57,625 nucleotides of DNA, from contig JAUSJZ010000012.1 of the NCBI GenBank assembly GCA_030647115.1, positions 1 to 57,625 of the forward strand. Direction: 5' to 3'. Numbering within the stretch: position 1 is the first letter of the stretch; each line of letters opens with the position of its first letter. Shown here piece by piece: positions 11,292 to 55,244 of the stretch. Source of the stretch: a bacterium. Lineage in GTDB: Bacteria > Patescibacteriota > UBA1384 > CAILIB01 > JAUSJZ01. The notes below the pieces were generated by a model that worked only from the letters and a program-made list of their open reading frames with translations, had not been told where the DNA came from and did no database searches. The translations under genes were made by a program, and so were the position numbers.

Positions 11292-11319
11292 AAAAAAAGG
11301 GCGCCGGTTGGCGCCCCTT
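11292..11319 (-). terminator. rho-independent terminator of the lipase/LGFP gene
   Basis: Minus strand reads aaggggcgcc-aacc-ggcgccct followed by TTTTTTT. Confidence 0.7.
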
Positions 11320-11378
11320 CAGGTTCTCGAGTTGTTCAGCTGGCCGTAGCCGCTATCGCGAAGCGACAGGCGGAGCCG

Positions 11379-13589
11379 CTACCAGTTGATGGTCAGCTCC
11401 TCGAAGGGCTGACTGTGGTTCTCGTTGACCGAGGGACCACGGGGGAAGCCGTGGCGGTACTCGGGACCAGAGTAGCGCTTCAGTATCTCCCCGTAGACCG
11501 CCCAGGCGTTATTGATGCCCAGCTCACAGATGCGGCCGAACTGGAAGAGCTGCTCTTCCCCGTATCGGGCACTGCAGCCGGAGCGCACGCCGGTGCGTTT
11601 GGCCGTTTGCGGATAACCGAGCGGCCCACCGGGGCCACCCGTGCGCAGGTACTCGCGGTTGAATCCGCCGGTGATGACGTGTTCGGTCTGGCTCCACTCG
11701 GCGATGCAGCCGCCCTCGAACGGTTGGTACTGACCCCAACCGCCGGTCGTGTTGACGAACTGGGGTGCCCCCGACTTCACCGCGCGGCGATAGTCTTTGG
11801 GATAACCCAGCTCACCTTGGCCCTTGCCTTTGGTATTCCAGACCCGGCCGAAGTCACCTAGCACCGTCGCCGTGAGTCCGTCGAATTTGGCGATGAAGCC
11901 GCCTTCGAATTGGGCCCACTCGCCGTTGCCACCGCTGACGCCCGATGGTTGATCGTAGCGCTGTTCGGTTGTCAGACAGCCGAGCTCACCGGCCCAACCA
12001 CCGGCCTGCTGGTAGTGGTCGTAGAACTCACCCTTGACGCCGTAGACTTCGGTGCCGAGGTTGATCAGGATACCGTTCTGGCAGCGCTGGTAGCTGAACC
12101 CGCGACCGCTGGTACCCGACTTGATGGTGCCGTTGCGACCATCCATCTGCACCGCTTCGAGCGGCGGCCCGACGTCGACCCGCTTGGCCGCCGCGTGCCA
12201 CTTGCCCTCGCCGTACCAGAAGCCGGTCTCACCGTAGTCCCACCGTGAGGCGGGGTGAGCGAGAACGACCTGGCCGACTGTGACGGTCGTTGGCGAGGTG
12301 CTCGGAGGCAGCATCGAGGCGTAGGTCTGGCTGGTGTCGGTCGTCGCATACAACGGCCCACGGGTGAGGTTCCACCAGTTATCTTCAATTCCTTTGTTGA
12401 GGTACTTTTCGAGATGCTTGAAAGCATCCTCACTGCTTGGCAACTCAACGTGTGACACTCCTACCGGTTCTCGGATCAAACGTTGTGCCTCGTTAGCGAG
12501 ACCATCCCAGTTGGCACTGCTGACCGGCACGATGGTGTCGTTATTGCTACCCCCACCAACACCAGAGATATACTCACTGCCGAGTTCGAAGGTGCCAGCG
12601 ATGGAGAGGTAGTCGATGCCGGTGTATGACGGCTGGTTCAGTTCCTTCAGAAAGGAACTGTTGGCCCGCATATCCCTGATGGCTGGGGCTGTCAGATTAG
12701 CGGCTATGTTTACGGTGAACAAAGCCGCGTTGATCAGCAGGCCCATGGACGGCGTGAAACCGTCGAGGGTGAGGAACTCGAACTGGGTGACCACTGCCAG
12801 GTCGAACCCGTTGTTCGGTGCCCCCAGCAGCATTACCAGCACAACGTTGTTGCGGTAGCCGAGGTTCTCGACCATGTAGCGGGCCACCAGACCACCCTGA
12901 CTGTGGCCGATGATGATTTTGGGGTCATCGTCGGCCAGTGACGGGATGTTCTTGATGCGGGAGAGGCAGTAGGCGGCACTCTCTTTGATGGGGTTGAGGT
13001 GACCATAAAGGATTGCCTCAACACCGTCGATGAGATCGAGCTTTCGATCCATCTCCCAGGTGGGGAGTCGGCTCTGGTAGAACCGCATCGAACCGGGGTT
13101 GGCGAAGGTGCCGTGGAGCAGGATGAAGTCGAGCTTCCGCTTACCGTCAGCGGAGCGACTGGTTGGCAGCAACGTGGCGGAGCGACCGGTTGAATCGTCG
13201 GCCGTCGCCAGTTGGACCTGATACAGACGCACGCTGGTGACAGCGGCGCGGGCATCGGTTGGTAGTTGGTCGAGACTGGTTGTCACTGTGTTGGCGGCGA
13301 TTGTCTGGGGCAGCATCAGGCGGTAGCTTTCGGTGCCGCCATTGTTCTTGACCCCGACCAGCAGGTAGTTGGCACTACTTTGGAGGTTGAGGTTGGCAAA
13401 CGTGACGGTGTCCGCCTCGGCGCGGTTGTGGTTGACCGGTACCTCACTGATGGTACGAAAGTCCGAATTGGTCGCGACCGCAGTGATCGGACCGGCGATC
13501 GTACCGCTGGCGTTCAGGGGGTTAGACCCGCCACAACCGTAGAGGTTGGGCAGAATCATCAGACTGACGACGATCGAGCAGAGACGCAT
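11379..13589 (-). CDS. G+C-rich lipoprotein: alpha/beta-hydrolase (lipase/esterase, GHSQGG) plus C-terminal LGFP-type repeats
   Basis: AAAGGAG SD before the ATG at 13589. Lipobox LYGC. Nucleophile elbow IIGHSQGG. Repeated GxLGYP...FEGG motifs at the C-terminus. Third codon positions mostly G/C. Confidence 0.75.
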   Translation of the reverse strand: MRLCSIVVSLMILPNLYGCGGSNPLNASGTIAGPITAVATNSDFRTISEVPVNHNRAEADTVTFANLNLQSSANYLLVGVKNNGGTESYRLMLPQTIAANTVTTSLDQLPTDARAAVTSVRLYQVQLATADDSTGRSATLLPTSRSADGKRKLDFILLHGTFANPGSMRFYQSRLPTWEMDRKLDLIDGVEAILYGHLNPIKESAAYCLSRIKNIPSLADDDPKIIIGHSQGGLVARYMVENLGYRNNVVLVMLLGAPNNGFDLAVVTQFEFLTLDGFTPSMGLLINAALFTVNIAANLTAPAIRDMRANSSFLKELNQPSYTGIDYLSIAGTFELGSEYISGVGGGSNNDTIVPVSSANWDGLANEAQRLIREPVGVSHVELPSSEDAFKHLEKYLNKGIEDNWWNLTRGPLYATTDTSQTYASMLPPSTSPTTVTVGQVVLAHPASRWDYGETGFWYGEGKWHAAAKRVDVGPPLEAVQMDGRNGTIKSGTSGRGFSYQRCQNGILINLGTEVYGVKGEFYDHYQQAGGWAGELGCLTTEQRYDQPSGVSGGNGEWAQFEGGFIAKFDGLTATVLGDFGRVWNTKGKGQGELGYPKDYRRAVKSGAPQFVNTTGGWGQYQPFEGGCIAEWSQTEHVITGGFNREYLRTGGPGGPLGYPQTAKRTGVRSGCSARYGEEQLFQFGRICELGINNAWAVYGEILKRYSGPEYRHGFPRGPSVNENHSQPFEELTINW

Positions 13590-13728
13590 CGGTTTCTCCT
13601 TTTTCAGGTGCAGGCGCACGGTTTGTGCGTTCTAATAACACTGTGTCAAATGGTAGATGACAAACAGATTATCAAGTACGATGGTTACATAATCGTTTTG
13701 TCATGTTCGAGCTGGTAACAATTAAATT

Positions 13729-14796
13729 ATGAAAAAAACACCACTATATTATTATCTCTTGCCGTTTCTGTTGGCTTTGATTATCGTTTGGCTATTGACG
13801 GGTGATTATGGTTTGGCCTGGTTATCGGTAGCGGCAACGGCCGGTAGTATTGCCGGTTCAATCATGTTTGTAATCGGTATTGTCCTACTAATTTTCCGAC
13901 GCATCACTCTCGGCTCGCTACTAGCTCTCACACTGGTAGCGCTGTTGCTGGGCATTACTTTTTCCTTCGAAGAGATCGGGTTTGGATTTATGAGAGCTTA
14001 TAAACAAAGAAACTTGCCAGATTCGACAGTTCAAAAAAAGATTGACTTTGGTAGGGGCAAGCAGTTGTGGGTCAGCCAGGGGCAAGGTGAAACTATTTAT
14101 ACTAATTTTATGGTCGACGGTAAGAATTCGTTCAGTAGGTTAGAGCTATTCAAAATTCTTAGTCGTGATTTACAATCACAGCTCAATATGGAGGTCAAAG
14201 TGTATGCTATGTACATCTCGCTTAGTGACGAATTAGTCTCACCGCGTAAACACTTTATCGATTTGCAGCTAGATTACTACAACGATGAACAATTGCCCTA
14301 CGGTGGTTTTTACGCTAATGATGCAATAAAAAAGAGTGACGCAAATTGGCGAGTCACATCATTCAAAAATAACAAATTCGTTTTTCAAACTATTCCGCAA
14401 CAAGATGAAGCCGATAAGGTGGGTAGATTCGTAGATCGTAGGGAGGTAAAAGTTACCAGAGGTGAGCCGGGTGTAAGCACTGATTTTGGTCTATCTTTAT
14501 TTCTGAACAAAACCAATGATTATGTTTATATCAGGGGAAATGACCAAAAACAATGTGCGTATCGCTATCCAAATTCAGACAACTATATACCAATGGACAC
14601 AGTTAATCCTGCAAATGGCTTTATGTCTGATGACAAAGAGAAATACTTATATACTTACGTAGACGAACCCAGTGTGGATTTTAATGTGCTGTATTGCGGC
14701 ACAGATGATAAACACGTTTATCACATAATCCCGATTATTGAATCGTACGATGGGGATTCAATCAAGGTCATCATCCGTCAGTACGAGCGACTCTAA
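13729..14796 (+). CDS. A+T-rich hypothetical membrane protein (3-4 N-terminal TM segments plus a soluble domain)
   Basis: Long ORF with hydrophobic N-terminus. No recognisable motif. Confidence 0.6.
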   Translation: MKKTPLYYYLLPFLLALIIVWLLTGDYGLAWLSVAATAGSIAGSIMFVIGIVLLIFRRITLGSLLALTLVALLLGITFSFEEIGFGFMRAYKQRNLPDSTVQKKIDFGRGKQLWVSQGQGETIYTNFMVDGKNSFSRLELFKILSRDLQSQLNMEVKVYAMYISLSDELVSPRKHFIDLQLDYYNDEQLPYGGFYANDAIKKSDANWRVTSFKNNKFVFQTIPQQDEADKVGRFVDRREVKVTRGEPGVSTDFGLSLFLNKTNDYVYIRGNDQKQCAYRYPNSDNYIPMDTVNPANGFMSDDKEKYLYTYVDEPSVDFNVLYCGTDDKHVYHIIPIIESYDGDSIKVIIRQYERL

Positions 14797-14865
14797 TCTA
14801 TCCACCGGTTATACACCAGGCCCCAACCCGCACTTTGCTGTACAATAGAACCATAGAATACCGCT

Positions 14866-16388: not shown

Positions 16389-16417
16389 TTGACCTGCTAC
16401 GAGCCCCGAGGTATAAT
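16389..16417 (+). promoter_or_regulatory. near-consensus sigma70-type promoter
   Basis: TTGACC (16389-16394), 17-nt spacer, TATAAT (16412-16417). Confidence 0.6.
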
Positions 16418-16423
16418 GCGATT

Positions 16424-16617
16424 AGTCTGATAAATTCCGATGTTTAACCATATCGGTAACCATCAGACGAGTACGCACCTTCATGGGTCTCTTTCCGCCC
16501 CCAGGGTCAGGAAGGGGATCACAAGTGGATGGTGCTGCCTGAAGCCGCGACAGTTACGCGGGGTTTAACCAACATTGACCCCAGAGCGTTAACCAAAAAC
16601 TGTCGCGGACTTTTTTT
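16424..16617 (+). ncRNA. candidate ~195-nt structured leader/attenuator or small RNA
   Basis: Lies between the promoter and a long terminator. Stem ccgcgacagtt 16545-16555 pairs with aactgtcgcgg 16598-16608, followed by T7. A competing local hairpin ccgcg/cgcgg exists. The motif TTAACCA occurs three times. Confidence 0.4.
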
Positions 16618-16658
16618 ATGGCTCTAAATATGACAAAGTGGTAATGAAGGAGAAGTCG

Positions 16659-17210
16659 ATGAGTCAGACAGATGCGGTGGTGGGTGATTTGGTGGAGGTA
16701 GTGACGCACTTACCCCATCAGGTTATACCGACCGATATGGGTGTGGCAGTAGCCAACGTCGCTATCGAGCACCATAAAGTGAGGCTGGCCCAAGCTCGAG
16801 CCGAGCTCGATCGATTACAACAACTGTGTGAGCACTCGTGGTGTTATGGGCTGGAGAGGCCGACGACCATCAGTGCAGAACAGGTTCCAGGTAGCCCCTG
16901 GCGGATGGTGGGCAGGCATGGTGATTGCCAGATCATTTGCAGCCTCTGTGGCTTGCAGTATACGAGAGAAACCATTCCTTACCTGCACCTCTGTCGGTGC
17001 TGTCTGCAACAGTGTGGCATGATCCACGTTTACAAGCGGTTTGAACGACGGCAACGCTTTGAGCAAGAACCCGACGCGACTCTGGTAGCCTATCTGCAGG
17101 GGCGGCTCAATGCCCTCATCTGGCGTCCGAATGGAGGACTGTGGGTACCTTACTGCTCCGATTGTCTGCTCTTTGACTTCGTGGTTGAGGAGAGACCGTA
17201 TGATAAGTGA
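16659..17210 (+). CDS. G+C-rich Cys-rich hypothetical protein (183 aa)
   Basis: GAAGGAG SD 6 nt before the ATG at 16659. Multiple CxxC-like pairs (CSLCG, CRCC, CSDC). No family recognised. Confidence 0.65.
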   Translation: MSQTDAVVGDLVEVVTHLPHQVIPTDMGVAVANVAIEHHKVRLAQARAELDRLQQLCEHSWCYGLERPTTISAEQVPGSPWRMVGRHGDCQIICSLCGLQYTRETIPYLHLCRCCLQQCGMIHVYKRFERRQRFEQEPDATLVAYLQGRLNALIWRPNGGLWVPYCSDCLLFDFVVEERPYDK

Positions 17211-17718
17211 ATGTAGGGCTGTGGTGACTATCAAGCGGCATCGTAAGCGTCACGGTTTCGTCGGAAGCATCAGAGTCGAGAACGGTCAGAGCAGCTGTGA
17301 CTATCAGGTTAAGGTCAGCCAACACCCGCATTTCGATGATCTGTTGTCGCTGACAGAGGGTGATTGGTCGGGCTTCAGCATCGAGATAACACGTGGCACC
17401 AGACGGCGGCGGGAGATCGTGATTCGTCGGCAAGGAGATGAAGAGAGCGGTCTGAATTACTATGAAGAGTTGGATGGTTCGACCATCACCATGGTTGCCC
17501 AACAGTTCCTGTTGCACGCGGCCAAGGTCGGTATCGATGCGCTTATCAGTCTGCGACGTGAGACTCTGCGCGGAGCCATTCTAGCCGGTACGAACCTGAC
17601 GTTGCCCAATCACGTTACTCTGACCGTGCCACTCCCACGTGAGGCCGCACTCCAAACCGCGGCCGCCGGTTCGGCCTTCAGTAAGTACCTTCTTGCTCCG
17701 GACGCAGACTGGCGTTAG
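17200..17718 (+). CDS. G+C-rich hypothetical protein (172 aa), translationally coupled
   Basis: ATG at 17200 overlaps the upstream stop (ATGATAAGTGA). In frame with track ORF 17110..17718. Confidence 0.6.
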   Translation: MISECRAVVTIKRHRKRHGFVGSIRVENGQSSCDYQVKVSQHPHFDDLLSLTEGDWSGFSIEITRGTRRRREIVIRRQGDEESGLNYYEELDGSTITMVAQQFLLHAAKVGIDALISLRRETLRGAILAGTNLTLPNHVTLTVPLPREAALQTAAAGSAFSKYLLAPDADWR

Positions 17719-17734
17719 GCGCGTCCGTAATCTT

Positions 17735-17761
17735 AAGGGGTCCCCGCGGCCCCCTTTTTTT
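17735..17761 (+). terminator. rho-independent terminator
   Basis: aaggggtccccgcggcccc followed by TTTTTTT. Confidence 0.65.
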
Positions 17762-19840: not shown

Positions 19841-19866
19841 GATCAAACAATAAACAGACCGTGAGC

Positions 19867-20048
19867 CTCGCTCGTGTGGGCGTCCCTTGTCAGCCCGCGT
19901 CGGCTAGATCTAACTTTAGATTACTATCTGAACGGTATGAGGTGATAACGCTAAACGATTAACATCATTTAGCTCTAATCACCTCATCCAGCCAGTCGAG
20001 AGTTAGATTACGCCGCCGTCTTAGCTGACATTCCCGCACTGACGCTCG
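19867..20048. repeat. A-family long imperfect palindrome, copy A1
   Basis: About 85% identical to 47037-47221 by eye. Arms fold on each other (cccttgtcag...ctaactt / agagttag...ctgacattccc). Inner stem atgaggtgat/atcacctcat. Confidence 0.8.
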
Positions 20049-20085
20049 GCCAGGTCTGTTTTTTGTTTTGATTACTGGCAACTAT

Positions 20086-20109
20086 GGGTGGTTGAGGTCG
20101 GCTCCAGAC
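20086..20109 (+). repeat. conserved 24-nt motif GGGTGGTTGAGGTCGGCTCCAGAC, copy 1
   Basis: Identical 24-mer at 35991-36014. In both places it sits in the loop of a local stem. Confidence 0.7.
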
Positions 20110-20110
20110 C

Positions 20111-20139
20111 TTGACTTTTAACCTGTTGTCAGCTATGGT
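20111..20139 (+). promoter_or_regulatory. sigma70-type promoter of cassette gene X1
   Basis: TTGACT, 17-nt spacer, TATGGT. Confidence 0.55.
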
Positions 20140-20197
20140 ACTTGCTAGTGATGCGTCGTAGGGGACAAAACCCGCGACGAAGGAAAGGACACAGCAC

Positions 20198-20803
20198 ATG
20201 AGTGCACAGTCAGACGAACGGACCTTTGGCCAAGCGGTGGAGTTGCTCCGTCGCATCGGCCAGAGTCTGAAGATGGGCCGACAGGCCCTGCAGTGGATCC
20301 TCAACAACTTCGCAGAGGTCGAGGACTGGGTGATCGCGCAGCTCAAACTGACCCTGTTGCCCTTGTTCGCCGCCAGCCTCGAAGGTTGGAAGGTGATCGA
20401 GGACGGCGAGGCGGTTGACGATGATGGGAGCTGGGTCGACGGGTTCTTTGCGGGTATGTCCCTCGCCTGCCTGCACCAGGACAGCGAGACGTACCTGACT
20501 GGCGAGGAGTTAGTGAAGAGGATCCGGCCGCGAATGGGTGGTCGGCGCGAGTTCGACCAGCACATCCTAGACTGGTTGTTCCGTCACTGGGACGACCCCC
20601 GCATCCCCACCTGGTTCAAGGAAGCCGTGGAGGGGGGCGACATCTACGTCGTCGCCACCGGCACGGTCATTCTGGACCCCGATGGCCGCCGGTGCGTGTT
20701 GTACCTGTTCTGGGGCGACGGTCGGCTCTACTGGCGCTGCCGCTGGCTCGGCTTCGGCGACTGGGACCGCCGCTGCCGTGGGTTGGTGCCCAGCGACTCC
20801 TGA
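20198..20803 (+). CDS. G+C-rich hypothetical protein, family X copy 1 (201 aa, Trp/Arg-rich C-terminus)
   Basis: GAAGGAAAGGA SD. Paralogous to 47971..48630 (ILDWL/LAEWL, IPxxW, GTV, DG, YLxWxDGR, WL, GxWD, DS-stop). Confidence 0.7.
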   Translation: MSAQSDERTFGQAVELLRRIGQSLKMGRQALQWILNNFAEVEDWVIAQLKLTLLPLFAASLEGWKVIEDGEAVDDDGSWVDGFFAGMSLACLHQDSETYLTGEELVKRIRPRMGGRREFDQHILDWLFRHWDDPRIPTWFKEAVEGGDIYVVATGTVILDPDGRRCVLYLFWGDGRLYWRCRWLGFGDWDRRCRGLVPSDS

Positions 20804-20828
20804 CCCTGATCCTTGGTTCTCGAACCTT

Positions 20829-20870
20829 GCCTGCCTGCCGCCTGCCTGCCGGTAGGCAGGGTAGGCAGGG
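20829..20870. repeat. P-family palindrome, expanded/imperfect copy P1
   Basis: gcctgcctgcc gcctgcctgcc gg taggcagg g taggcagg g. Confidence 0.7.
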
Positions 20871-20878
20871 ATCGCCCT

Positions 20879-20915
20879 GTGCCCTGGCGGCTTCCGCCAG
20901 GGCACTCGTGTTTTT
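20879..20915 (+). terminator. rho-independent terminator
   Basis: gtgccctggcgg-cttc-cgccagggcac followed by tcgtgTTTTT. Confidence 0.7.
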
Positions 20916-20926
20916 AGAAAAAACTC

Positions 20927-22286: not shown

Positions 22287-22447
22287 GAACTTATTGCAAA
22301 ACTTCCGATTCAGCCAAACTGTTTGGTTTTTCGCGAAAAGAGTGAAGGATGAGGAGGCGTATCAAACTGATACGTTGACGAGTCCTGAACTCTTTGTAGC
22401 CAAAACCAGACAGTTTGGGTCTAGAAAGGTAGTTTTGCAATGAGTTC
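22287..22447. repeat. B-family long imperfect palindrome, copy B1
   Basis: Terminal inverted repeats gaacttattgcaaaac / gttttgcaatgagttc. The reverse complement aligns along its length with 33892-34072. Confidence 0.75.
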
Positions 22448-24222: not shown

Positions 24223-24477
24223 ATGATTTATCTTGATATCGTCACAATTTATACTCCTGCTGAACGAATTATTCGTCGAGGTGGTATGATGATCAGAGAG
24301 CAGTACCAAGAAGCAAAACGCTACCTGCGTCTTAAAGATGATCGTCGACCCGGAGAGGAGATGTTGCTGCCGCTCGAGAAGATGGATGATCTGGCATCAG
24401 ACATGTACGGCGCTGCCGAAGATCAAAGTAATCAAGTACCGCAGTTAGGCAGCCAGCTACTATTGGAGCCATTCTAA
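24223..24477 (+). CDS. hypothetical protein (84 aa)
   Basis: ATG abuts the previous stop (TAAATG). No motif recognised. Confidence 0.4.
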   Translation: MIYLDIVTIYTPAERIIRRGGMMIREQYQEAKRYLRLKDDRRPGEEMLLPLEKMDDLASDMYGAAEDQSNQVPQLGSQLLLEPF

Positions 24478-24500
24478 AGTAAAACAAGTAATTTGTTGCT

Positions 24501-24856: not shown

Positions 24857-24884
24857 AAAAAAGGCGCCGCCCGTGAGGGCGGCG
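24857..24884 (-). terminator. rho-independent terminator abutting the stop of 24885..25634
   Basis: Minus strand reads cgccgccc-tcac-gggcggcg followed by ccTTTTTT. Confidence 0.7.
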
Positions 24885-25634: not shown

Positions 25635-25677
25635 TGGTGCCTCCTCAAACTAATCTAGCCACTACTAGAGCGCCAAG

Positions 25678-26653: not shown

Positions 26654-26659
26654 AATGGT

Positions 26660-39163: not shown

Positions 39164-39200
39164 GATCGCCCTCCTTAAGGGCGGGTCGTCTGAACGGCGT

Positions 39201-40634: not shown

Positions 40635-42101
40635 ATGTTAAAGAGCGCCAAACCTGATCGTTTTTTTGTCACTACAGCGATACCGTACATGAACTCCCAC
40701 GTACACCTGGGGAACTGTTTGGAGTATGTTCTGGCCGATGCGCTGGCCCGAGCGGCGCGGCTGCGAGGTGAGCCAACTTACCTTTTGACCGGTACCGACG
40801 AACACGGTCAAAAAATTGTTACTACTGCCAAAGACAAAGGGGTTGAGGTACGCGAGTTCGTACAGGGTAACGTCGATTTCTTTCAAGCGGCACTTAAAGA
40901 GCTGAACGTCAGCTACGACGACTTTATTCGCACCTCCGATCAAAAAAGGCACTGGCCGGTGGTGCAGGCCTTCTGGCGTCGGCTCAAAGAGAAGGGTGAT
41001 TTGTACGAAAAGGATTATGAAGGTCTGTATTGTATCGGTTGTGAAGCCTTCTACCGCGAGGCCGATTTAGTTGACGGCCAGTGTCCTACCCATTTAACCA
41101 AACCGGAGCTGACGAAAGAGCGCAACTGGTTTTTTAAATTGTCACGGTACTCGACCGAGATTTTGGATTTTCTCAAAACCCGGGTGGAGCCACGCTGGCG
41201 GGCGAACGAGATGATTAAGTTTTTAGAGCAAGGGCTGGAAGATATCAGCTTCTCACGACCGAAAGCGAAGTTGAATTGGGGGATACCGGTACCCGACGAT
41301 GACAGCCAGGTAATTTACGTCTGGTGCGATGCTTTGGTCAATTATCTCTCGGCCGTAACGAGGGTCGAGGTAAACAAGAAAACGAAAGCGATTGACTTAA
41401 AATCAGATTGGTGGCCGGCGTCGGTGCACGTGGTCGGCAAAGATATCGCCAAGTTTCACACCCTCTACTGGCCGGCCATGTTGCTCTCGGCCGGTCTGGC
41501 CTTGCCCGAAAAAGTACTCATCCACGGTTTCATTACTATTAACGGGCAGAAGATCAGTAAATCACTCGGCAACGTCATTGAGCCGAAACAGATAACCGAA
41601 ACTTACGGCGTCGATGCCCTGCGTTTCTATTTTCTCCATGAGGTGCCGACCGTCGACGACGGTGATTTTTCGCTGAACCACTTGAAAGAGGTTTATAACG
41701 GAGTGCTGGCCGACGGGTTAGGCAACCTGGTGCAGCGGTTGATTGTCATGTCTAACAAATACGAAGTTAAGTGGAGCTGGCCGACCGGTACTAACACCGA
41801 CCTAGCCTACCGTGCGGTCTTAACAATTTGTTCGGCCGGGGGTCATTTTGAGGTCCAAAAAGCTTTAGACAAATTGGTCAAGCAGATTGAGGAGTTGAAT
41901 CGCAACATCCAGCAGCTGGCACCGTGGGAGCTTTTCAAGACCGAACCCGACCGGGCGCGCGACGAGCTAATCAAATTGCTCGACGAGTTGGCCCGGTTGG
42001 CGGTGACGCTAGAGCCGTTCTTACCCAATACGAGCGCTAAAATTATCACTCAACTGAAAACCCGTCAGCCGGAAGTGCTTTTTCCGAAATTGGATCAGTA
42101 A
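40635..42101 (+). CDS. metG: methionine--tRNA ligase (short form)
   Basis: HIGH-type motif HVHLGN. Zinc knuckle CIGCE...CPTH. KMSKS-type motif KISKS. Confidence 0.93.
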   Translation: MLKSAKPDRFFVTTAIPYMNSHVHLGNCLEYVLADALARAARLRGEPTYLLTGTDEHGQKIVTTAKDKGVEVREFVQGNVDFFQAALKELNVSYDDFIRTSDQKRHWPVVQAFWRRLKEKGDLYEKDYEGLYCIGCEAFYREADLVDGQCPTHLTKPELTKERNWFFKLSRYSTEILDFLKTRVEPRWRANEMIKFLEQGLEDISFSRPKAKLNWGIPVPDDDSQVIYVWCDALVNYLSAVTRVEVNKKTKAIDLKSDWWPASVHVVGKDIAKFHTLYWPAMLLSAGLALPEKVLIHGFITINGQKISKSLGNVIEPKQITETYGVDALRFYFLHEVPTVDDGDFSLNHLKEVYNGVLADGLGNLVQRLIVMSNKYEVKWSWPTGTNTDLAYRAVLTICSAGGHFEVQKALDKLVKQIEELNRNIQQLAPWELFKTEPDRARDELIKLLDELARLAVTLEPFLPNTSAKIITQLKTRQPEVLFPKLDQ

Positions 42102-43012
42102 TTATTTGACTTGGCTTCTATAGCGGCGGCTAGAGCAATCAAAGTATCGTTTTCAAGTTCCTGATAACCGTAAGGTGTAGGATCGCTACGAAGTCGGACA
42201 GTTGATTTTCTTAGCAGGGTGAAAATCCACCACAGATGGGAGAGTGAATATTGGTCACGATGGATATTGGCCATCAGTTCAGCGTCATCAACAATCAACC
42301 AATCCATTAGATGATTATTGGCTTCTGTTGGATGAAGATCCAATACAGCGCTGAGAACAGTTGACAGCTGGTCAAGTGGAATTATGTCTGTTGCAGCAGA
42401 GTCTTGAGCTAAGCTGATGTCGTTATGATGGGTGAGCAAATTGGACCCTAAAGTGGCGATCTCTTTTCTTAAATCCTTACTGTCCGGAGTACTGTTTGGT
42501 TGTGACAAAAAACTGCTGTTGTCGGTCGCGGCTCTTACGCCAGTTAACTCACCACTCTGTCTCTTCCAGCGGGGCCAGATCGTCATCACTTCAAACTGAT
42601 CGATCGAACCTTCGGGAACGACTGTTGTTATTAATTCACGCACGACGTTAAAAGAACGGCCGGTGGAACTGGTCTCATCTACTAAACAGATATTGTGCCC
42701 CAGATATCCTTGAAATGTCTCACTAAACCTGTTTTTTGTTTCGTCGGTGACAACAGCCGGTGGATTGACAAATTTGATTGCTGGTAATGGTGCTCGAGTG
42801 ATTTGGGGCCAGACCTCTTGTAGTAGCCAAGAAAAAGGGCGAGCACTTTTATCTAAGAAAATTAGGGTATCATATTCTTGTCTCTGGCACTGTTTAATGA
42901 GCTCGGTGATACCAAATTCGATCATTAATCTTTCGGCTGGGTTGGTCAGATAGCGAAACTTCTCGTTATTAGTCTCTGACTCATCGTTGCTCTCAGTGAC
43001 AATTTTTTCCAT
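42095..43012 (-). CDS. phosphoribosyltransferase-domain protein with an unknown ~130-aa C-terminal extension
   Basis: PRPP loop NICLVDETSSTGRS. Start taken at ATG 43012, because the track ORF runs antisense into the next gene. Confidence 0.6.
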   Translation of the reverse strand: MEKIVTESNDESETNNEKFRYLTNPAERLMIEFGITELIKQCQRQEYDTLIFLDKSARPFSWLLQEVWPQITRAPLPAIKFVNPPAVVTDETKNRFSETFQGYLGHNICLVDETSSTGRSFNVVRELITTVVPEGSIDQFEVMTIWPRWKRQSGELTGVRAATDNSSFLSQPNSTPDSKDLRKEIATLGSNLLTHHNDISLAQDSAATDIIPLDQLSTVLSAVLDLHPTEANNHLMDWLIVDDAELMANIHRDQYSLSHLWWIFTLLRKSTVRLRSDPTPYGYQELENDTLIALAAAIEAKSNNY

Positions 43013-43084
43013 TGTATTCCTGTCAATTATAACAGTACCGTCAGGAGTTTTATTAAATCGGACCAGATAGATTACAATGGGTTT

Positions 43085-43933
43085 ATGAATCCCTTTTTGC
43101 TCCAGATAATCGCGGCCCTTTTGTTTGCGGTGACGATGGTACTTGATAAGCGAAATCTGCGCCGCTACAAACTGGCCCCACCCGATTACACCTTCATGGT
43201 CTTTATCTGGTTGGTCGTCTTTTCGGGTATCGTGACTACGTTTACCCACCACGTTGATTTGGTGAAACTGGCCGAAGCCCGTTACTACTACGGTTTTGTG
43301 GTCTTGGTGCTGCTGGCGTTTTTGTGGAACAAACTCTACTACTACTTTGAACTGCACGAGCGAATGGAGGATTTTGAGGTCATTAACCTGACCGTGCCGG
43401 CGGCGACGGCAGTTATGGCCGGTATCGTCTTCCCCGAAGAGCGCAACATTATTGCTTATCTGGCAGTCGGGGTCTCGCTGGTGACACTGGCCGTCGTGCG
43501 CTTGCAGAAAAAAAACTGGCAGTTCAACACCTACGCCTGGTTAATTTTGGTGATGATTCTGGCCATGGCGGCCGAAACAGTCATGCGCAAATATATGCTG
43601 GCCGTCTTTGATCCGGCCACCCTCTATTTCTACCGCGTTACCGGTGTGACCATTTTACTTTACCTCTTTAACCGTCCTAAAAACCTACCTACTAAATGGC
43701 AACCCTGGTTGGCGACCGGTCTGGCCTCGGCTCTGGGTACCGCCGCCATGATTATGATGTTCTACGGCTACGCCGCCATTGGCGTCATTCTCACCACCAT
43801 GATCTTCTTACTCAACCCGTTGGCCGTCTATTGGCTCGATTCGCTCATCTTGCACGAACGCCTTAAACTCAAAAACATGGTGGCCTCGGTAGTAATTCTG
43901 GCTGCCATAACCATCACGGCGGTGTTATCATAA
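43085..43933 (+). CDS. DMT/EamA-like integral membrane transporter
   Basis: 282 aa, about 10 hydrophobic helices in two halves. Confidence 0.55.
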   Translation: MNPFLLQIIAALLFAVTMVLDKRNLRRYKLAPPDYTFMVFIWLVVFSGIVTTFTHHVDLVKLAEARYYYGFVVLVLLAFLWNKLYYYFELHERMEDFEVINLTVPAATAVMAGIVFPEERNIIAYLAVGVSLVTLAVVRLQKKNWQFNTYAWLILVMILAMAAETVMRKYMLAVFDPATLYFYRVTGVTILLYLFNRPKNLPTKWQPWLATGLASALGTAAMIMMFYGYAAIGVILTTMIFLLNPLAVYWLDSLILHERLKLKNMVASVVILAAITITAVLS

Positions 43934-44720: not shown

Positions 44721-44740
44721 AAAAAACGATATCATTGCCT

Positions 44741-44950
44741 CTCTAGCTCGGGCGATCCCTTGTCAGGCCCGCCTGCCTGCCGGCAGGCAGGCGTCTGCTA
44801 GATACAAACTTGTTGTTGCTAAATAGAACACTTTATTTGCCTACGCTTCCAACAACTGTCGTTGTTGAAGCTACGGCAAGTCAGCCACCAATTTTCAGAA
44901 GTTTGCATTATGCAGCCGTCGAACCTGATATTCCCGAGCAGTACGTTCGG
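44741..44950. repeat. A-family-related long palindrome, copy A4 (diverged interior)
   Basis: 5' arm ctcgggcgatcccttgtcaggcccgc...gtctgctagata. 3' arm aagtttgcattatgcagccgtcgaacctgatattcccgagcag. Both arms align with the A1/A3 arms. Confidence 0.65.
44770..44793. repeat. P-family perfect 24-bp palindrome, copy P3, nested in A4
   Basis: cgcctgcctgccggcaggcaggcg. 20 bp of it (44773-44792) is extra relative to A1/A3 at ...caggcccgc|gtc... Confidence 0.8.
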
Positions 44951-44995
44951 CAACGATATTGTTTTTTTGTTAACATGATACTAAGGGAGTCAATT

Positions 44996-45133
44996 ATGCC
45001 GCATCTCGGTTGGTTCGACGAGTCAGACGATGAACGTCGGTCGGCGCCGGAGTTTGATGCCGGTGACGTCTTCATTGGCGTGATTGCGGTTGTCATTGTG
45101 CTGTTACTGCTCAGCCTCGTTTTCTGGAAGTAG
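44996..45133 (+). CDS. small single-TM protein (45 aa)
   Basis: AAGGGAG SD 7 nt before the ATG. Translation: MPHLGWFDESDDERRSAPEFDAGDVFIGVIAVVIVLLLLSLVFWK. Confidence 0.45.
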   Translation: MPHLGWFDESDDERRSAPEFDAGDVFIGVIAVVIVLLLLSLVFWK

Positions 45134-45156
45134 CGAAGGGGTGGTATCCAACTTCA

Positions 45157-45178
45157 GCCGGCGCACAACGCCGGTTTT
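45157..45178 (+). terminator. hairpin terminator
   Basis: gccggcg-cacaa-cgccggt followed by TTTcT. Confidence 0.5.
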
Positions 45179-45579: not shown

Positions 45580-45604
45580 AAAAACTCCGGCCGGGTGGCC
45601 GGAG
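45580..45604 (-). terminator. rho-independent terminator
   Basis: Minus strand reads ctccggcc-accc-ggccggag followed by TTTTT. Confidence 0.7.
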
Positions 45605-45633
45605 GCAAAGGGGGGGGCTGACAGACCGGAGTC

Positions 45634-46227
45634 TTAGGCCTCGCTCGGGAGCTCGTTGAGGTCGGGGCCGACCAGGCTGGGCTCCCGCTCCAGACGATCC
45701 AGCCGCTCGGTCAGCGTGGCGAGCTGCAACTGCTGTTCGGCGAGTTGCTTTTCCTGTCGCGCGAGATCCCGCCGCAGGCAGTCCCAGTGCGTGGTCGTGA
45801 CCAGTTGGTCGGGCCAGACCCGCCGCGGCAACAGCGTGCCGCGCCGCACCCGCCACATCATCTGCAGCGCGTGCTTGAGCTCGATGGCGGAAATCTCGAG
45901 CTTGTAGCACGGCGTCTTGCCGGAGTAGTGGTGCAATAGGCCGCTGGCGGTGGCCCAGCGGTACTCGCCCTCCTGCCGCACGACACGATGCATAATGTCG
46001 TGGATCGTGACGTGGCTGGCGAGAGCCACCAGGCTCTCGGGGAACAACGGAGCCTCGTTGTCGTTGATGATGGGGTCGCTGACGTACAGCAGACCCGTCT
46101 GACACGTCTCTACCCGGGCACCGCTAGCCTTGTGGTAGCGGTAGCGGTTCGGCTTCTGATCACGCCACGCGAAGTGACGGGCCATCTCTCGTGCATCCAT
46201 CTGCTTCAGGTACAATCGTGTACTCAT
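45634..46227 (-). CDS. G+C-rich hypothetical protein (197 aa) with a C-terminal coiled coil
   Basis: GAGGAGA SD 5 nt before the ATG at 46227. The track ORF extension to 46419 would overlap the promoter and the neighbouring gene. Confidence 0.65.
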   Translation of the reverse strand: MSTRLYLKQMDAREMARHFAWRDQKPNRYRYHKASGARVETCQTGLLYVSDPIINDNEAPLFPESLVALASHVTIHDIMHRVVRQEGEYRWATASGLLHHYSGKTPCYKLEISAIELKHALQMMWRVRRGTLLPRRVWPDQLVTTTHWDCLRRDLARQEKQLAEQQLQLATLTERLDRLEREPSLVGPDLNELPSEA

Positions 46228-46294
46228 GTCGGTCTCCTCTGTCGCTTGGTTCAGCAGCGAGTGGTCCCGCTGTCTGTGGCGACTTTCACGAAGT

Positions 46295-46323
46295 ACTTTA
46301 GCATAAAGAAGACATTTTGTCAA
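46295..46323 (-). promoter_or_regulatory. sigma70-type promoter
   Basis: Minus strand reads TTGACA, 17-nt spacer, TAAAGT. Confidence 0.55.
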
Positions 46324-47026: not shown

Positions 47027-47233
47027 TTATCATGGTCTCGCTCGCCCGGGCGATCCCTTGTCAGGCCCGCGTCGGCTAGATCTAACTTTATATTACTAAC
47101 TCACCTGTATGAGGTGATAACGTCAAACGACTGACGTCATTTGACTATAATCACCTCATCCAGCCAATCGAGAGTTAAATTACGCCGCCGACGAACCTGA
47201 CATTCCCGGGCAGGACGCTCGACCACGGTAATG
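47027..47233. repeat. A-family long imperfect palindrome, copy A3
   Basis: Core 47037-47221 aligns with A1. Inner stems are atgaggtgat/atcacctcat and gtcaaa/tttgac. Confidence 0.8.
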
Positions 47234-47267: not shown

Positions 47268-47295
47268 AAAATGAAAACCGCCCTCAGTAGGGCGG
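47268..47295 (-). terminator. rho-independent terminator
   Basis: Minus strand reads ccgccct-actg-agggcgg followed by TTTTcaTTTT. Confidence 0.65.
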
Positions 47296-47320
47296 TCGTA
47301 GGTGGACCGGTCGCTGTCTG

Positions 47321-47776
47321 CTAGAGACAGGGCACCGGCTCGTGGGGCGTCGGGATGTGGAAGCGGGTGGTCTCATCCGCGAGCGGGACGTTCTTCATGT
47401 CCCGGTTGGGGCCCTCGCCCGGAACATCCGGGTAGACCTCGTTGACGGTCAGACCCACCGTCTGCCAGCGGCCATCCTTCTTCAGGTAGGTCACGATGTA
47501 GGGGTGGTAGAAGGTCCGGCCGCATTGCGGTGCCCCGTCGACGTGGTAGCCGACGTATTCGGTCTTGATGTAGACCGAGCAGACGTGCTGCCCGCGACAC
47601 GAGAACTCGTAACGCGCCGGGAAATCAGCATAGGTCTGCTCGAGATCATACAGCTCGTATCCGGGAGCCGGGGCTCCCTCGAGGTGACCGTCGAACAGAC
47701 GCTGCAGGCACTTCAACGCCTCGAAGGCGCTGCCGGTGATCTGCCAAGTCGGGTACGTGCGGGGTTTGGTGGACAC
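47321..47776 (-). CDS. G+C-rich hypothetical protein (151 aa)
   Basis: GAAAGGGA SD 5 nt before the GTG at 47776. The track start TTG 47854 lies within the -10 box. Confidence 0.6.
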   Translation of the reverse strand: MSTKPRTYPTWQITGSAFEALKCLQRLFDGHLEGAPAPGYELYDLEQTYADFPARYEFSCRGQHVCSVYIKTEYVGYHVDGAPQCGRTFYHPYIVTYLKKDGRWQTVGLTVNEVYPDVPGEGPNRDMKNVPLADETTRFHIPTPHEPVPCL

Positions 47777-47853
47777 GGGAGTCCCTTTCTGGGCTGTTTC
47801 AGCCCGCTTAGACGAGGGCGGCGGGTTACCGCTCCTCGGTTTCGAACGGGGCA

Positions 47854-47885
47854 ACTATAGCACGAAAGGGGGGGTTGTTTGTCAA
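47854..47885 (-). promoter_or_regulatory. extended -10 promoter (TGcTATAGT) with a distal TTGACA
   Basis: Minus strand reads TTGACA, 20-nt spacer, TATAGT preceded by TGc. Shares TTTCGTGCTAT with the 39701-39729 promoter. Confidence 0.45.
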
Positions 47886-47900
47886 GATTCGGGCTCTGTA

Positions 47901-47929
47901 TTGACGTAATTGGTGTGATCTGTTAGTAT
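47901..47929 (+). promoter_or_regulatory. sigma70-type promoter of X2, divergent from the previous one
   Basis: TTGACG, 17-nt spacer, (TGt)TAGTAT. Confidence 0.6.
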
Positions 47930-47970
47930 CACCCAGAGATGAGCCGGCAACCACCGGCGAGAAAGGGACC

Positions 47971-48630
47971 GTGATGATTGGAACGACACATGTCTGGGAG
48001 ACCACCCAGGCAATCAAGATGGCGGGGCACACCGGAGATGCGATTGCTCCGGCGTTGGGGTCATACGACCCGGCCAAGTTGCTCGGTCTCGTGCAGAGCC
48101 ATGCGGAGCTGTACCGGCAGACGATGGAGGCCGCCCTGGCGGACTTCTGGAGCTCCTTCAAGTCGCCGTTCAAGTACGACAAGACCTGCGACGACTGGGA
48201 GCTCGTCAAACCGGAAGGCGAGGACTGGCGCCAGTGGCCGGTCGACCCGACCGCCACCGGCCCGGGTGTGCGCATCGAGTGGGACCCGATCCACATCCCC
48301 GAGTTGTTCGAGGAGGTCTCGTTCATCCGTGAGGTTGACGGGGGCTTCGTGAGTGGTCTCAAGATGTGGCAGCGCGCCCTGGACCCGGCCGAGTGCAACT
48401 GTCCTGACGGCCAGTTCCTCGCCGAGTGGCTGCTTCTGCACCAGCAGTACATCCCAAAGAGCTGGCGGGGCCACTATCTGGTGTTCCCGGGCACCGTGTG
48501 GCGCAGCCGCGACGGCGCTCTGGATGTGGCGTACCTCGGCTGGAGCGATGGGCGCTGGTGCCTCGACTTCGGCTGGCTCGACGATGGCTGGGACGGCTAC
48601 GACCGTCTGCTGCGCCGCCGCGACTCCTGA
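47971..48630 (+). CDS. G+C-rich hypothetical protein, family X copy 2 (219 aa)
   Basis: GAAAGGGA SD before GTG-ATG. The C-terminal ~100 aa align with 20198..20803. 20 of 21 nt spanning the stop codon are shared (cgactcctgaccc[t/c]gatcct). Confidence 0.7.
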   Translation: MMIGTTHVWETTQAIKMAGHTGDAIAPALGSYDPAKLLGLVQSHAELYRQTMEAALADFWSSFKSPFKYDKTCDDWELVKPEGEDWRQWPVDPTATGPGVRIEWDPIHIPELFEEVSFIREVDGGFVSGLKMWQRALDPAECNCPDGQFLAEWLLLHQQYIPKSWRGHYLVFPGTVWRSRDGALDVAYLGWSDGRWCLDFGWLDDGWDGYDRLLRRRDS

Positions 48631-48659
48631 CCCCGATCCTCTACCTTGATTGGCTCTCT

Positions 48660-48689
48660 GCCTGGGCGGCTGGCGCCCGGGCATTTTTT
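48660..48689 (+). terminator. rho-independent terminator
   Basis: gcctgggcg / cgcccgggc stem followed by aTTTTTT. Confidence 0.65.
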
Positions 48690-54115: not shown

Positions 54116-54217
54116 TGCCAAATGACTAAATGTCATTTGGCATACGGGTTGAATATTTTTCTAAACAAAGTATTAAGTCCAGAGTCAATATCTAACACTA
54201 CCAAACAGCGGCTATGC

Positions 54218-54241
54218 CGCCTGCCTGCCGGCAGGCAGGCG
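54218..54241. repeat. P-family perfect 24-bp palindrome, copy P4
   Basis: cgcctgcctgccggcaggcaggcg, identical to 44770-44793. Confidence 0.8.
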
Positions 54242-54298
54242 TCGATATGATGGCATATAAATGGCCATCTTTTTTAGTACTGACGTCTTGGTTCTTTA

Positions 54299-54336: not shown

Positions 54337-54404
54337 ATAGTTGTTAGTGGCAAGGGAATAACGTAAAATTAACATTGATAACTAATAAAAGGAGCTCTAA
54401 CAAT

Positions 54405-54890
54405 ATGGAATCTAAAGTAACACAAGAAGGCACAGGTGTGCCAGAACAGCCAGAGGTAGAGACAGATCTTGAGACGTTACGCACTAAGTTACAACAAAGG
54501 CTCAATGAGCTTCAACGTGATGGGGTTGTCTGTAACCAGGTCAGAGAACTGCTAGCGAATGATCCTGATGTGGGGTTGGGCGTAGGGCATCCTAAAGAGA
54601 CGCGCGTGCTTCTTTTTGCGTCTGAATATAACTTACTGAATCAGCTGTTAAGTGATCGTCCCACACCTCCAACTTTAGAGTTACTCGGGCTGGTGGATGA
54701 GGCTTTAACTATTTTTTCTAACCCAGAGATTACGGCTGATGATCTTGGTAATACAATCACACTACCCCTAACAGCAGCCAATTTAGAGAAAGCCGTCCAA
54801 AGTGTGGCCGGTCGTCGCGCCGCTACCATGCTCGTCCCACTCCGTGACTATATGCAAGGGCACGGCCTCGACATCCATAACTTCAGCTAG
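54405..54890 (+). CDS. hypothetical protein (161 aa)
   Basis: AAAGGAG SD before the ATG at 54405. No motif recognised. Confidence 0.55.
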   Translation: MESKVTQEGTGVPEQPEVETDLETLRTKLQQRLNELQRDGVVCNQVRELLANDPDVGLGVGHPKETRVLLFASEYNLLNQLLSDRPTPPTLELLGLVDEALTIFSNPEITADDLGNTITLPLTAANLEKAVQSVAGRRAATMLVPLRDYMQGHGLDIHNFS

Positions 54891-54937
54891 TGACGACGAA
54901 TCGATAAGAAAGCGAAGACCTCTACCTCTCCCCCAGA

Positions 54938-54966
54938 TTGACAAAGAGGGTAAAAAGTGCTACAAT
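54938..54966 (+). promoter_or_regulatory. near-consensus sigma70-type promoter
   Basis: TTGACA, 17-nt spacer, TACAAT. Confidence 0.65.
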
Positions 54967-55015
54967 CGCTCAATCTGGGTTGCCAGAACAGCTTTCGGCG
55001 TCAAAGGAGGCATTC

Positions 55016-55219
55016 ATGACGCACCAGCTGGATTGGGTCGTGTGGTCCCTGATCGGGTTGGCGGTCGTTCTGGCCGTCGCCCTCGTCGGGGTGCTCTGGT
55101 CGGTCTTCGCCGGCCGGCCAGCAACCAAACGTAAAGACGACATCATCGAGGCCGAGTTCGTCTCCGCCCGTCAGGGCGGATTGACAACGGGTCGATACGA
55201 TGTCGACACCTACGCCTGA
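55016..55219 (+). CDS. G+C-rich small single-TM protein (67 aa)
   Basis: AAAGGAGG SD 6 nt before the ATG. TM segment WVVWSLIGLAVVLAVALVGVLWSVF. Confidence 0.55.
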   Translation: MTHQLDWVVWSLIGLAVVLAVALVGVLWSVFAGRPATKRKDDIIEAEFVSARQGGLTTGRYDVDTYA

Positions 55220-55221
55220 AG

Positions 55222-55244
55222 CCGGGGGTTCGCCCCCGGTTTTC
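55222..55244 (+). terminator. rho-independent terminator (repeated before each pilin paralog)
   Basis: ccggggg-ttcg-cccccgg followed by TTTTc. Copies also lie near 56020-56047 (diverged) and 56859-56880. Confidence 0.65.

Follow-up and report, generated by a model that had tools for sequence, protein, structure and literature searches.

The DNA analysed here is a stretch of 57,625 bp (G+C 52.7%; hereafter the window) which carries, dispersed among its housekeeping genes, a set of small gene units (units 1 to 10) that the original prediction described as an autonomous, moron-like cassette layer. Our results favour another account, which we hold to be fairly probable: the genome would use two expression regimes, and the units would form a class of mixed origin, made up of target genes of diversity-generating retroelements (DGRs), vertically inherited genes and singletons. 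Housekeeping genes would be expressed from leaderless messages or from messages devoid of a Shine-Dalgarno (SD) sequence. The second regime, in which each unit has a promoter of its own, a leader some tens of nucleotides long and a strong SD, and ends in an intrinsic terminator, would carry the lineage-restricted, fast-evolving fraction of the genes. A module composed of a reverse transcriptase (RT), Avd and a template repeat (TR), located outside the window or since lost, would rewrite the last ~130 nt of the DGR targets at template adenines, and these targets would relocate between distant Patescibacteria as promoter-to-hairpin cassettes. The lipase gene of unit 1 and the gene pair of unit 2 would be inherited vertically at fixed positions, and the singletons are left unassigned as to origin. 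We place the set with known kinds, namely DGR remote targets together with a flexible, fast-evolving gene shell.

The feature that best sets the units apart is the start of translation. An SD that matches AAGGAGG over 5 nt or more, at a spacing of 6-8, precedes 11 of the 13 open reading frames (ORFs) of the units and 1 of 37 backbone genes (Fisher p = 2.4e-8). In the 22 nt before their starts, the units carry AGGAG or GGAGG at this spacing, and no comparable SD was found before groES, groEL, dnaB, efp, xerC, metG, uvrD, mnmA, recG, tatD, dsbA or the Nramp gene. Strong SDs had been predicted for the units, and the contrast is sharper than claimed. The two exceptions among the unit ORFs are the genes at 47.3-48.6 kb, which carry GAAAGGGAC. 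In 19 of 35 backbone genes, versus 1 of 13 unit ORFs, the start is preceded by a TANNNT hexamer whose end lies 5-12 nt (mostly 6-9) upstream of it; at random positions its frequency is 8.9% (backbone excess, p = 1e-11). A -10-like hexamer close before the start codon is a known signature of leaderless messages. We infer that backbone messages are leaderless or SD-less, and that the units are leadered, SD-led and terminated. The same split, with housekeeping genes lacking an SD, was observed in L118, L119, L120 and L125 (L-numbers designate contigs or loci of other genomes used for comparison), where the lipase orthologs all retain AAGGAG and the unit 2-like genes retain AGGAG. An unbiased scan for an SD, a start and an ORF of at least 40 codons recovered the units and added 35010-35225 and 54405-54890, the remaining matches being mostly starts within or overlapping backbone and other genes. 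A literature search returned no description of SD-led ORFans in a leaderless genome for Patescibacteria. In conclusion, the SD contrast defines the unit class better than G+C content does.

Promoters and terminators were predicted by consensus scans. Near-consensus sigma-70 matches were found at 16389(+), 20111(+), 25681(-), 39729(-), 46323(-), 47901(+) and 54938(+), and strong GC-stem/T-tail hairpins at 11320(-), 17737, 20879, 24884(-), 26897, 29657, 37769(-), 45604(-), 47297(-) and 48659; the positions proposed initially for both kinds of signal were matched by these scans. Nine of the 12 top terminator matches (8 or more pairs, 6 or more of them G-C; 40 kb scanned) coincide with the 3' ends of units.

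Two units are variable-protein cassettes of the DGR type. Unit 3 (20102-20917, plus strand) has a predicted promoter at 20111-20139, a coding sequence at 20198-20803 with a variable region (VR) at ~20670-20798, an inserted palindrome at 20838-20864 and a conserved post-VR hairpin at 20879-20905. Unit 9b (47901-48689, plus strand) has a predicted promoter at 47901-47929, a coding sequence at 47971-48630 with a VR-like 3' end at ~48500-48627, and a hairpin at 48659-48683. The two genes are paralogs (29% identity overall) with a common C-terminal motif, and a profile search with these two members retrieved 14 clusters among 5.8 billion. A contig of 43% G+C, L089, encodes an ortholog of 20198-20803 (protein 70-72%, nucleotide 76% identical), followed in this order by a TR, Avd and an RVT_1 reverse transcriptase with the motif LGNLTSQ. 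There, VR (756-884) and TR (1171-1299) form a 129-nt repeat in which 19 of 21 mismatches lie at TR adenines; the Avd match to NF033474 (E = 4e-14, 52.7 bits) is below the curated cut-off of 80, as is that to bAvd (1e-7) below its own. A second complete target-TR-RT cassette, in which Avd was not searched for, is present in L124, a contig from the same sample as L118; TR adenines account for 20 of its 21 mismatches. When the window VR (20670-20798) is set against the L124 TR, identity reaches 93.8% where the template base is not A and drops to 25%, the chance level, where it is A, which is just the pattern of randomisation that a DGR leaves. The pattern is weaker for 47971-48630 (0.61 at non-A and 0.33 at A positions, compared with the TR of L089). 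The VR end sequence CGTGGGTTGGT..CCAGCGACTCC, similar to the GC-rich end of an initiation of mutagenic homing (IMH) site, is common to the window, L089 and L124.

In all members of the family the stop codon is followed by a short spacer and a GC-rich hairpin. In L085, L089 and L091 the post-VR hairpin GTGCCCTGGCGGCTTCCGCCAGGGCAC shows 94-98% identity, versus 53-76% for the coding parts, and the hairpin of 47971-48630 has kept its shape with changed pairs. By analogy with the DGR target-recognition hairpin, for which BPP-1 is the paradigm, it is likely to act as target-recognition element and terminator. An exact-pattern scan of genome and viral contigs for the DGR hairpin gave none. The AlphaFold2 (AF2) model of the variable protein has a confidence score (pLDDT) of 82; Foldseek returned no match at E <= 0.001 in PDB and BFVD, the weak top matches including several C-type lectins of snake venom and other origin with poor superposition, and a profile search against PDB sequences returned nothing. 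Together, these sequence comparisons show that 20198-20803 and 47971-48630 have the characters of DGR variable-protein genes, apparently as remote or orphan targets. A DGR RT (46% identical to that of L089) and Avd were also seen directly beside xerC in a Patescibacteria contig (L101:6072-7443).

Members of this family occupy eight distinct genomic contexts. In the window, one target lies between groEL and the DUF5665 gene and the other between dsbA, with intervening sequence, and mnmA. Elsewhere, two members lie between htrA and pyrG (L082); a target lies between pyrG with orf145 and prmC (L085); the target-TR-Avd-RT array of L089 lies next to tRNA genes, and the target-TR-RT array of L124 between a repeat and ftsZ; further targets lie beside a polysaccharide deacetylase gene (L091) and a heliorhodopsin gene (L126). 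For the cassettes of units 3 and 9b, nucleotide homology begins at or in the promoter and ends just past the hairpin: L089:179-968 aligns with window 20102-20917 (76% identity), and L091:4287-5062, at a different locus, with window 47926-48687 (77%). Between the window and L089 the target is 72% identical, versus 38% for PilB (52% for its ATPase domain), whose synonymous divergence (dS) is saturated. In L125 nothing occupies the slot behind groEL (161 bp); in L120 it is taken by a gene of 299 aa that is unrelated. These alignments show that cassettes of this type relocate and pass between distant Patescibacteria as promoter-to-hairpin units.

Other units have stayed in place. L118 and L119 are congeners of the window host (GroEL and DnaB 97-98% identical, nucleotide identity 81-88%, backbone dS 0.75-1.27), L120-122 and L125 are family-level relatives (GroEL 79-87% identical, G+C 45-47%), and L036 is a more distant syntenic metagenome-assembled genome (MAG). 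Unit 1 (11292-13589, minus strand; coding sequence 11379-13589, SD AAGGAG, terminator 11320-11295) encodes a lipoprotein-type alpha/beta-hydrolase, a lipase with the motif GHSQGG, a lipoprotein-type signal sequence (LYGC) and C-terminal LGFP-like repeats. It matches the Pfam families Palm_thioest, PGAP1 and DUF676, as well as LGFP with 22.9 bits (cut-off 22), and LGFP is also recorded for the orthologs P0027 and P0030. A search detected five orthologs, all in syntenic Patescibacteria (including L118, L119, L120 and L125), where the gene always lies between AP endonuclease/PsbP-like genes on one side and dnaB on the other. The C-terminal 300 aa (LG[YF]P-type repeats) are 83-84% identical at the family level, like GroEL, and 83-93% overall, compared with 18-25% for the N-terminal domain and 27-28% for the hydrolase domain at the family level. 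The AF2 model (pLDDT 40.6) was too poor and was not used. We regard this lipase as a putative surface enzyme aimed at the host envelope, with a conserved anchor and a hyper-divergent N-terminal part.

Unit 2 (16389-17761, plus strand; promoter 16389-16417, terminator 17737-17753) contains two overlapping Cys-rich ORFs, u2a (16659-17210) and u2b (17200-17718). Both congeners have the pair in the gap from dnaB to groES, with flanks 97% identical, and u2a and u2b are 66 and 68% identical at the amino acid level in L118, 33 and 46% in L119 (dN/dS ~0.25-0.47). It is absent in L120, and L125 has a weak u2b-like ORF. On this synteny, the lipase and the u2 pair are shown to have been inherited vertically at fixed positions. 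Since dN/dS is 0.19-0.47 for u1, u2a, u2b, u3 and u9b (ORFs being named after their units), these are real genes. Among collinear relatives the unit 3 slot varies (L125, L120) and units 1 and 2 are syntenic. In L036 the equivalent gaps are filled by unrelated accessory genes which, judged by sequence, resemble HicAB-like, TrmB-like and AbrB/PIN-like genes; the gaps between backbone genes are long-term variable slots.

The G+C content at third codon positions (GC3) of the 35 Pfam-recognisable backbone genes is 0.609 ± 0.049. Third positions dominated by G or C, initially attributed to the units at large, were clear in seven of 13 unit ORFs (0.77-0.86, z +3.2 to +5.2): the lipase (0.77), 20198-20803 (0.85), 38942-39163 (0.86), 45634-46227 (0.85), 47321-47854 (0.82), 47971-48630 (0.86) and 55016-55219 (0.79). 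The excess was mild in two (29015-29635, 0.69; 39201-39635, 0.70) and not found in four (0.60-0.64; both ORFs of unit 2, 24885-25634 and 37779-38789, the last at 0.64). About 10 ORFans overlooked earlier are on the contrary poor in G+C (GC3 0.40-0.47, z -2.9 to -4.2), among them 10625-11179, 13729-14796, 24223-24836, 31700-32350, 42095-43357, 54375-54890 and the pilin-like genes (55247-57620). At least two low-GC ORFan or pilin-like genes are syntenic yet only 48-55% identical in congeners. A and T at third positions (A3, T3) are both depleted in the GC3-rich outliers, so that we rejected an adenine-specific depletion spread by DGR mutagenesis as the source of the excess.

A high GC3 does not date an insertion, because the excess persists in the lipase, which is syntenic to the family level: lipase GC3 is 0.77-0.80 in congeners, and its C-terminal domain, at 0.61 in L120 where the backbone is at 0.45, remains G+C-rich in a relative of 45% G+C. 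Lipase dS (0.43-0.60) is low compared with the backbone. The DGR targets of L089 and L124 have GC3 values of 0.78 and 0.89 and a dS of 0.81, and the accompanying RTs, 75% identical, have saturated dS and a host-like GC3 (0.46 and 0.55). Low dS was rejected as proof of recent transfer, since the co-travelling RT is saturated and the vertically inherited lipase is equally low; the low dS of GC-rich genes therefore indicates constraint or bias at synonymous sites. High GC3 is a persistent property, kept by synonymous constraint or by a biased process, and not a timestamp of import. Candidate causes are selection tied to the leadered, SD-led regime and GC-biased conversion in genes that recombine often.

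The remaining units are singletons. Unit 4 (24857-25681, minus strand) contains an ORFan of 249 aa (24885-25634) with SD AGGAGG, between a promoter at 25681-25652 and a terminator at 24884-24865. Unit 5 (26625-26923, plus strand) is a G+C-rich insert of 300 bp in the gap between xerC and PAP2, where the spacer of L036 measures 14 bp; it has a promoter-like site, an SD-led ORF of 28 codons as its longest ORF, in line with the original prediction, and a strong terminator (26897-26920). It gave no credible Rfam match and may encode a small RNA or a small protein. Unit 6 (28976-29693, plus strand) contains an ORFan of 206 aa (29015-29635; SD AAGGAGG, terminator 29657-29678). Unit 7 (37745-39729, minus strand) has a promoter at 39729-39701 (TTGACA-17-TATCAT, with TG), a terminator at 37769-37756 and three SD-led ORFs encoding a zinc-ribbon-like protein of 144 aa (39201-39635), a Cys-rich protein of 73 aa (38942-39163) and a protein of 336 aa (37779-38789). 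Unit 8 (45580-46323, minus strand; promoter 46323-46295, terminator 45604-45585) contains an ORFan of 197 aa (45634-46227). Unit 9a (47268-47900, minus strand; terminator 47297-47276) contains an ORFan at 47321-47854 whose start is uncertain, a GTG at 47776 having GAAAGGGAC just upstream. In unit 10 (54938-55244, plus strand; promoter 54938-54966) an SD-led membrane ORF of 67 aa (55016-55219) has no terminator of its own ahead of the pilin-like gene at 55247, with which it is probably co-transcribed. Two extra members lie on the plus strand: an SD-led membrane ORF of 71 aa at 35010-35225 (GC3 0.72), missing from that list, and a membrane ORF of 45 aa at 44997-45176 (SD GGGAG, terminator 45156-45176), which adjoins copy C of a hairpin element described below.

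Except for the lipase, the unit ORFs matched no family in Pfam, NCBIfam, PHROGs or PADLOC, and the exact sequences of eight ORFs on record were alone in their 90% clusters or accompanied by their own start-site variants (~15 billion proteins). The ORFs u7a and u7c were alone in such clusters, and the exact sequences of u7b and u9a are not on record in this look-up. Searching the 13 unit ORFs by tblastn against 50,697 phage and 72,556 plasmid records gave no match. An exhaustive HMMER search over 1.84 billion representatives, which among the singletons covered u8 alone, found no true homolog of it; u8 and u9a have no relative in IMG/VR, and the lipase has none among GTDB representatives. These results bear out that most of the proteins are unrecognised and that the lipase is the only recognised one. 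About six of the 10 units do lie exactly in a gap between housekeeping genes; units 1, 4, 8 and 10 abut other ORFans. Overall, what the original prediction observed is largely borne out, and its interpretation partly so.

Could all units nevertheless be moron-like cassettes, recently seeded singly into gaps by an undescribed route or from a high-GC, for instance actinobacterial, partner? Seven ORFs are indeed alike in composition (G+C 0.61-0.69, GC3 0.77-0.86, with A3 and T3 depleted), the combination of strong SDs and sigma-70 promoters resembles that of high-GC bacteria that use SDs, LGFP-type domains occur mainly in Actinobacteria, slot contents differ in L036, L120 and L125, and the DGR cassettes move. 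The notion of a cassette layer retains from this the predicted autonomy of the units, their mostly ORFan content and the portability of the DGR units; it fails for the lipase and the u2 pair, which are old and syntenic, in all five related genomes for the former and in both congeners for the latter, contrary to the expectation that relatives would lack conserved synteny. Four unit ORFs have no GC excess, the only lipase homologs are the five syntenic Patescibacteria orthologs, and the excess is kept by genes that have been in place since lineages split at the family level. The searches give no footing to capture from a high-GC partner: phages, plasmids, IMG/VR and high-GC organisms yielded no homolog of the units, GTDB representatives no match, and the 1.84 billion representatives no homolog of u8. 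We therefore consider such seeding unlikely for the set as a whole. Still less credible is that the singletons are G+C-rich spacers with chance ORFs rather than genes. They have no homologs, a high G+C lowers the frequency of stops and the unit 5 ORF does not exceed 28 codons; against this, composition follows the coding-type gradient GC2 < GC1 < GC3, an SD at spacing 6-8 precedes the ATG of nine of 10 non-DGR, non-lipase ORFs, each has a predicted promoter and terminator, and the testable members (u1, u2a, u2b, u3, u9b) show the dN/dS values given above.

Intergenic repeats suggested another possibility, that a 190-nt hairpin and/or a 35-nt motif is an attC-like recombination or landing site for the DGR-type cassettes, and perhaps for others, used possibly by a Xer-type recombinase. 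The 190-nt long-hairpin repeat is present in four copies: 19866-20056(+) (copy A), 36099-36296(-) (copy B), 44735-44956(+) (copy C) and 47033-47231(+). Its predicted RNA structure is a single extended hairpin (-77 kcal/mol, z = -6.6) with conserved basal stems and an apical stem in which 17 pairs show compensatory change. The 35-nt motif CTG.CAAC..TGGGTGGTTGAGGTCGGCTCCAGAC is found at 20075-20109 and 35980-36014 and at L124:214-243; in the window as in L124, it immediately precedes the -35 box of the DGR target. Copy A and the motif (19866-20109) are directly upstream of unit 3; in L124 a degenerate hairpin copy and the same motif precede the target, giving the same order of hairpin element, motif, promoter and target, and the solo motif copy (35980-36014) lies near copy B. 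The shared hairpin repeat proposed originally is hence real, and adjoins only units 3 and 9. On the other side, two of the four hairpin copies have no neighbouring GC-rich unit, the cassettes of L089, L091 and L126 have no such element upstream, no integron-type integrase was found, and the Xer-like gene, although the sole tyrosine recombinase of the window, is a syntenic housekeeping xerC; transposases are absent from the window, as noted before. The hairpin could equally be a miniature inverted-repeat transposable element (MITE) or a structured RNA. A landing-site role thus seems very improbable. Neither an Rfam search at gathering thresholds for the repeats nor an exact-pattern scan of genome contigs for the 190-nt repeat gave a match.

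Several observations concern these repeats. Public short-read assemblies break at the 190-nt hairpin element. A palindrome of 22-27 nt, CGCCTGCCTGCCGGCAGGCAGGCG, occurs at 20838-20864, 33939-33965, 44769-44795 and 54217-54243, as well as in L100 (twice) and at L089:3061; it is inserted within hairpin-repeat copy C, in the 3' untranslated region of a DGR target and in a second repeat family, and is also present in distant Patescibacteria MAGs. The second repeat (~110 nt) lies at 22330-22440(+), in the efp-rpsR gap, and at 33915-34025(-), upstream of ksgA; 64 nt are 88% identical as an inverted pair, with an internal ACGTATC..GATACGT hairpin.

Comparison with described systems places the set more precisely. 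Phage morons (Juhala/Hendrix) are reportedly autonomous promoter-gene-terminator units between conserved phage genes. The units share with them predicted promoters and terminators of their own, an often atypical composition, a position between conserved genes and mostly unassigned functions. They differ in residing in a cellular chromosome, flanked by groEL, dnaB, efp, xerC, uvrD, metG and mnmA, without PHROGs or phage tblastn matches; at least two units are vertical and syntenic, and the marker of the class is SD-led versus leaderless initiation. Unlike integron gene cassettes, the units are dispersed and bear promoters, there is no IntI, and the hairpin repeat is found at two of ~12 units. 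As in known DGRs (BPP-1 Mtd, Treponema TvpA, Thermus TaqVP and the DGRs of the candidate phyla radiation, CPR), the VR is at the 3' end of the target, a GC-rich hairpin follows right after it, there are several targets per genome, and the relatives L089 and L124 encode a cognate TR mismatched at adenines and an RT bearing the motif [I/L]GxxxSQ, accompanied in L089 by Avd. In contrast to known DGRs, the window targets lack TR, Avd and RT within 57.6 kb, the variable-protein family is tiny, with no Pfam or NCBIfam model and no match to a solved or viral predicted structure, the targets have GC3 values of 0.78-0.89 in genomes of 43-53% G+C that have host-like RT genes, and the cassettes, each with a promoter of its own, move from locus to locus.

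The lipase resembles the LGFP-repeat hydrolases of Corynebacteriales in its GxSxG alpha/beta-hydrolase domain, C-terminal LG[FY]P-type repeats and lipoprotein-type signal; it passes the LGFP cut-off marginally, its detectable homologs are all Patescibacteria orthologs, and its anchor is as conserved as GroEL with an enzyme part at 18-28%. Mixed sets of leaderless and SD-led genes are described for Actinobacteria and Deinococcus. Here too, -10-like hexamers lie 6-9 nt before many starts and only a minority of genes have a leader and an SD; the difference is that this SD-led minority matches almost perfectly the lineage-specific, fast-evolving ORFans.

Some points weigh against two regimes and a mixed origin. 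Leaderless or leadered status was read from motif positions alone, and the 3' end of the 16S rRNA (anti-SD) lies outside the window. No RT, Avd or TR was found in the 57.6-kb window, and since they are absent in cis, ongoing diversification of the two window targets is unproven. Neither Foldseek (PDB, BFVD) nor the PDB profile search recovered the C-type-lectin fold that DGR targets usually have. Finally, u4, u6, u7a-c, u8, u9a, u10 and unit 5 have no relative for comparison and may be recent insertions or old residents.

As for the surroundings of the units, recognisable genes of the window include a type IV pilus operon, dnaX, dnaB, groES, groEL, efp, rpsR-ssb-rpsF, xerC, uppP, uvrD/pcrA, ksgA, metG, tatD, mnmA, recG and comEA. 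Three PsbP_2 pilin-like genes are arranged in tandem (55193-57620), their 5' regions being 74-85% identical, and a fragment of the unit 10 ORF recurs before the third copy (55136-55175 and 56796-56835). The number of PsbP_2/pilin-like copies beside the lipase varies: the window and L119 have one each, L118 three to four. The best GroEL match in a search of 185,579 species representatives (GTDB) is 66% identical, and for XerC the best matches, mostly from Patescibacteria MAGs (Blackburnbacteria, Saccharibacteria, Parcubacteria and others), show 44-53% identity. Using GroEL and XerC as anchors, GTDB representatives and JGI metagenomes yielded distant relatives only (at most 66 and 53%, respectively), L036 alone being syntenic. 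The window host is accordingly taken, from these matches, to be a Patescibacteria bacterium for which no close GTDB representative was found, possibly related to Saccharibacteria. The ORF at 36319-37692, considered as a helicase gene, proved to encode an Nramp transporter. The PilB ATPase (5277-7514, minus strand) has an N-terminal HU-type domain (Bac_DNA_binding) fused to MshEN and T2SSE. The dnaB gene of L118 (L118:3210-5921) contains an intein (Intein_splicing and LAGLIDADG), the L036 dnaB ORF (L036:1568-4252) is similarly long (894 aa, match split in two), and those of the window and of L119 have no intein.

Patescibacteria are obligate epibionts whose host-interaction genes are mostly annotated as hypothetical. 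A bolder proposal, which we find doubtful at present, is that the genome is split between a leaderless, SD-less core and an SD-dependent, terminator-insulated, often GC3-rich 'interaction shell'. Its members would be the host-envelope lipase, small membrane proteins, zinc-ribbon proteins and DGR-diversified binders; the shell would evolve or turn over ~10 times faster than the core, with DGR targets served in trans and spread among distant epibionts, possibly landing beside the 190-nt structured repeat, and the GC3 and SDs that are kept would mark a separate translation regime rather than a foreign origin. For DGR biology, the window and its relatives add a variable-protein family with orphan, mobile and promoter-bearing targets. 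They also call for caution in method, since GC3 excess and ORFan status, read at first as signs of recent horizontal import, persist in vertically inherited genes. The existence of two regimes, if true, would make dual translation initiation in reduced genomes a testable question, and if host-interaction genes are marked by a leader, an SD and a terminator, they could be picked from sequence alone across thousands of MAGs.

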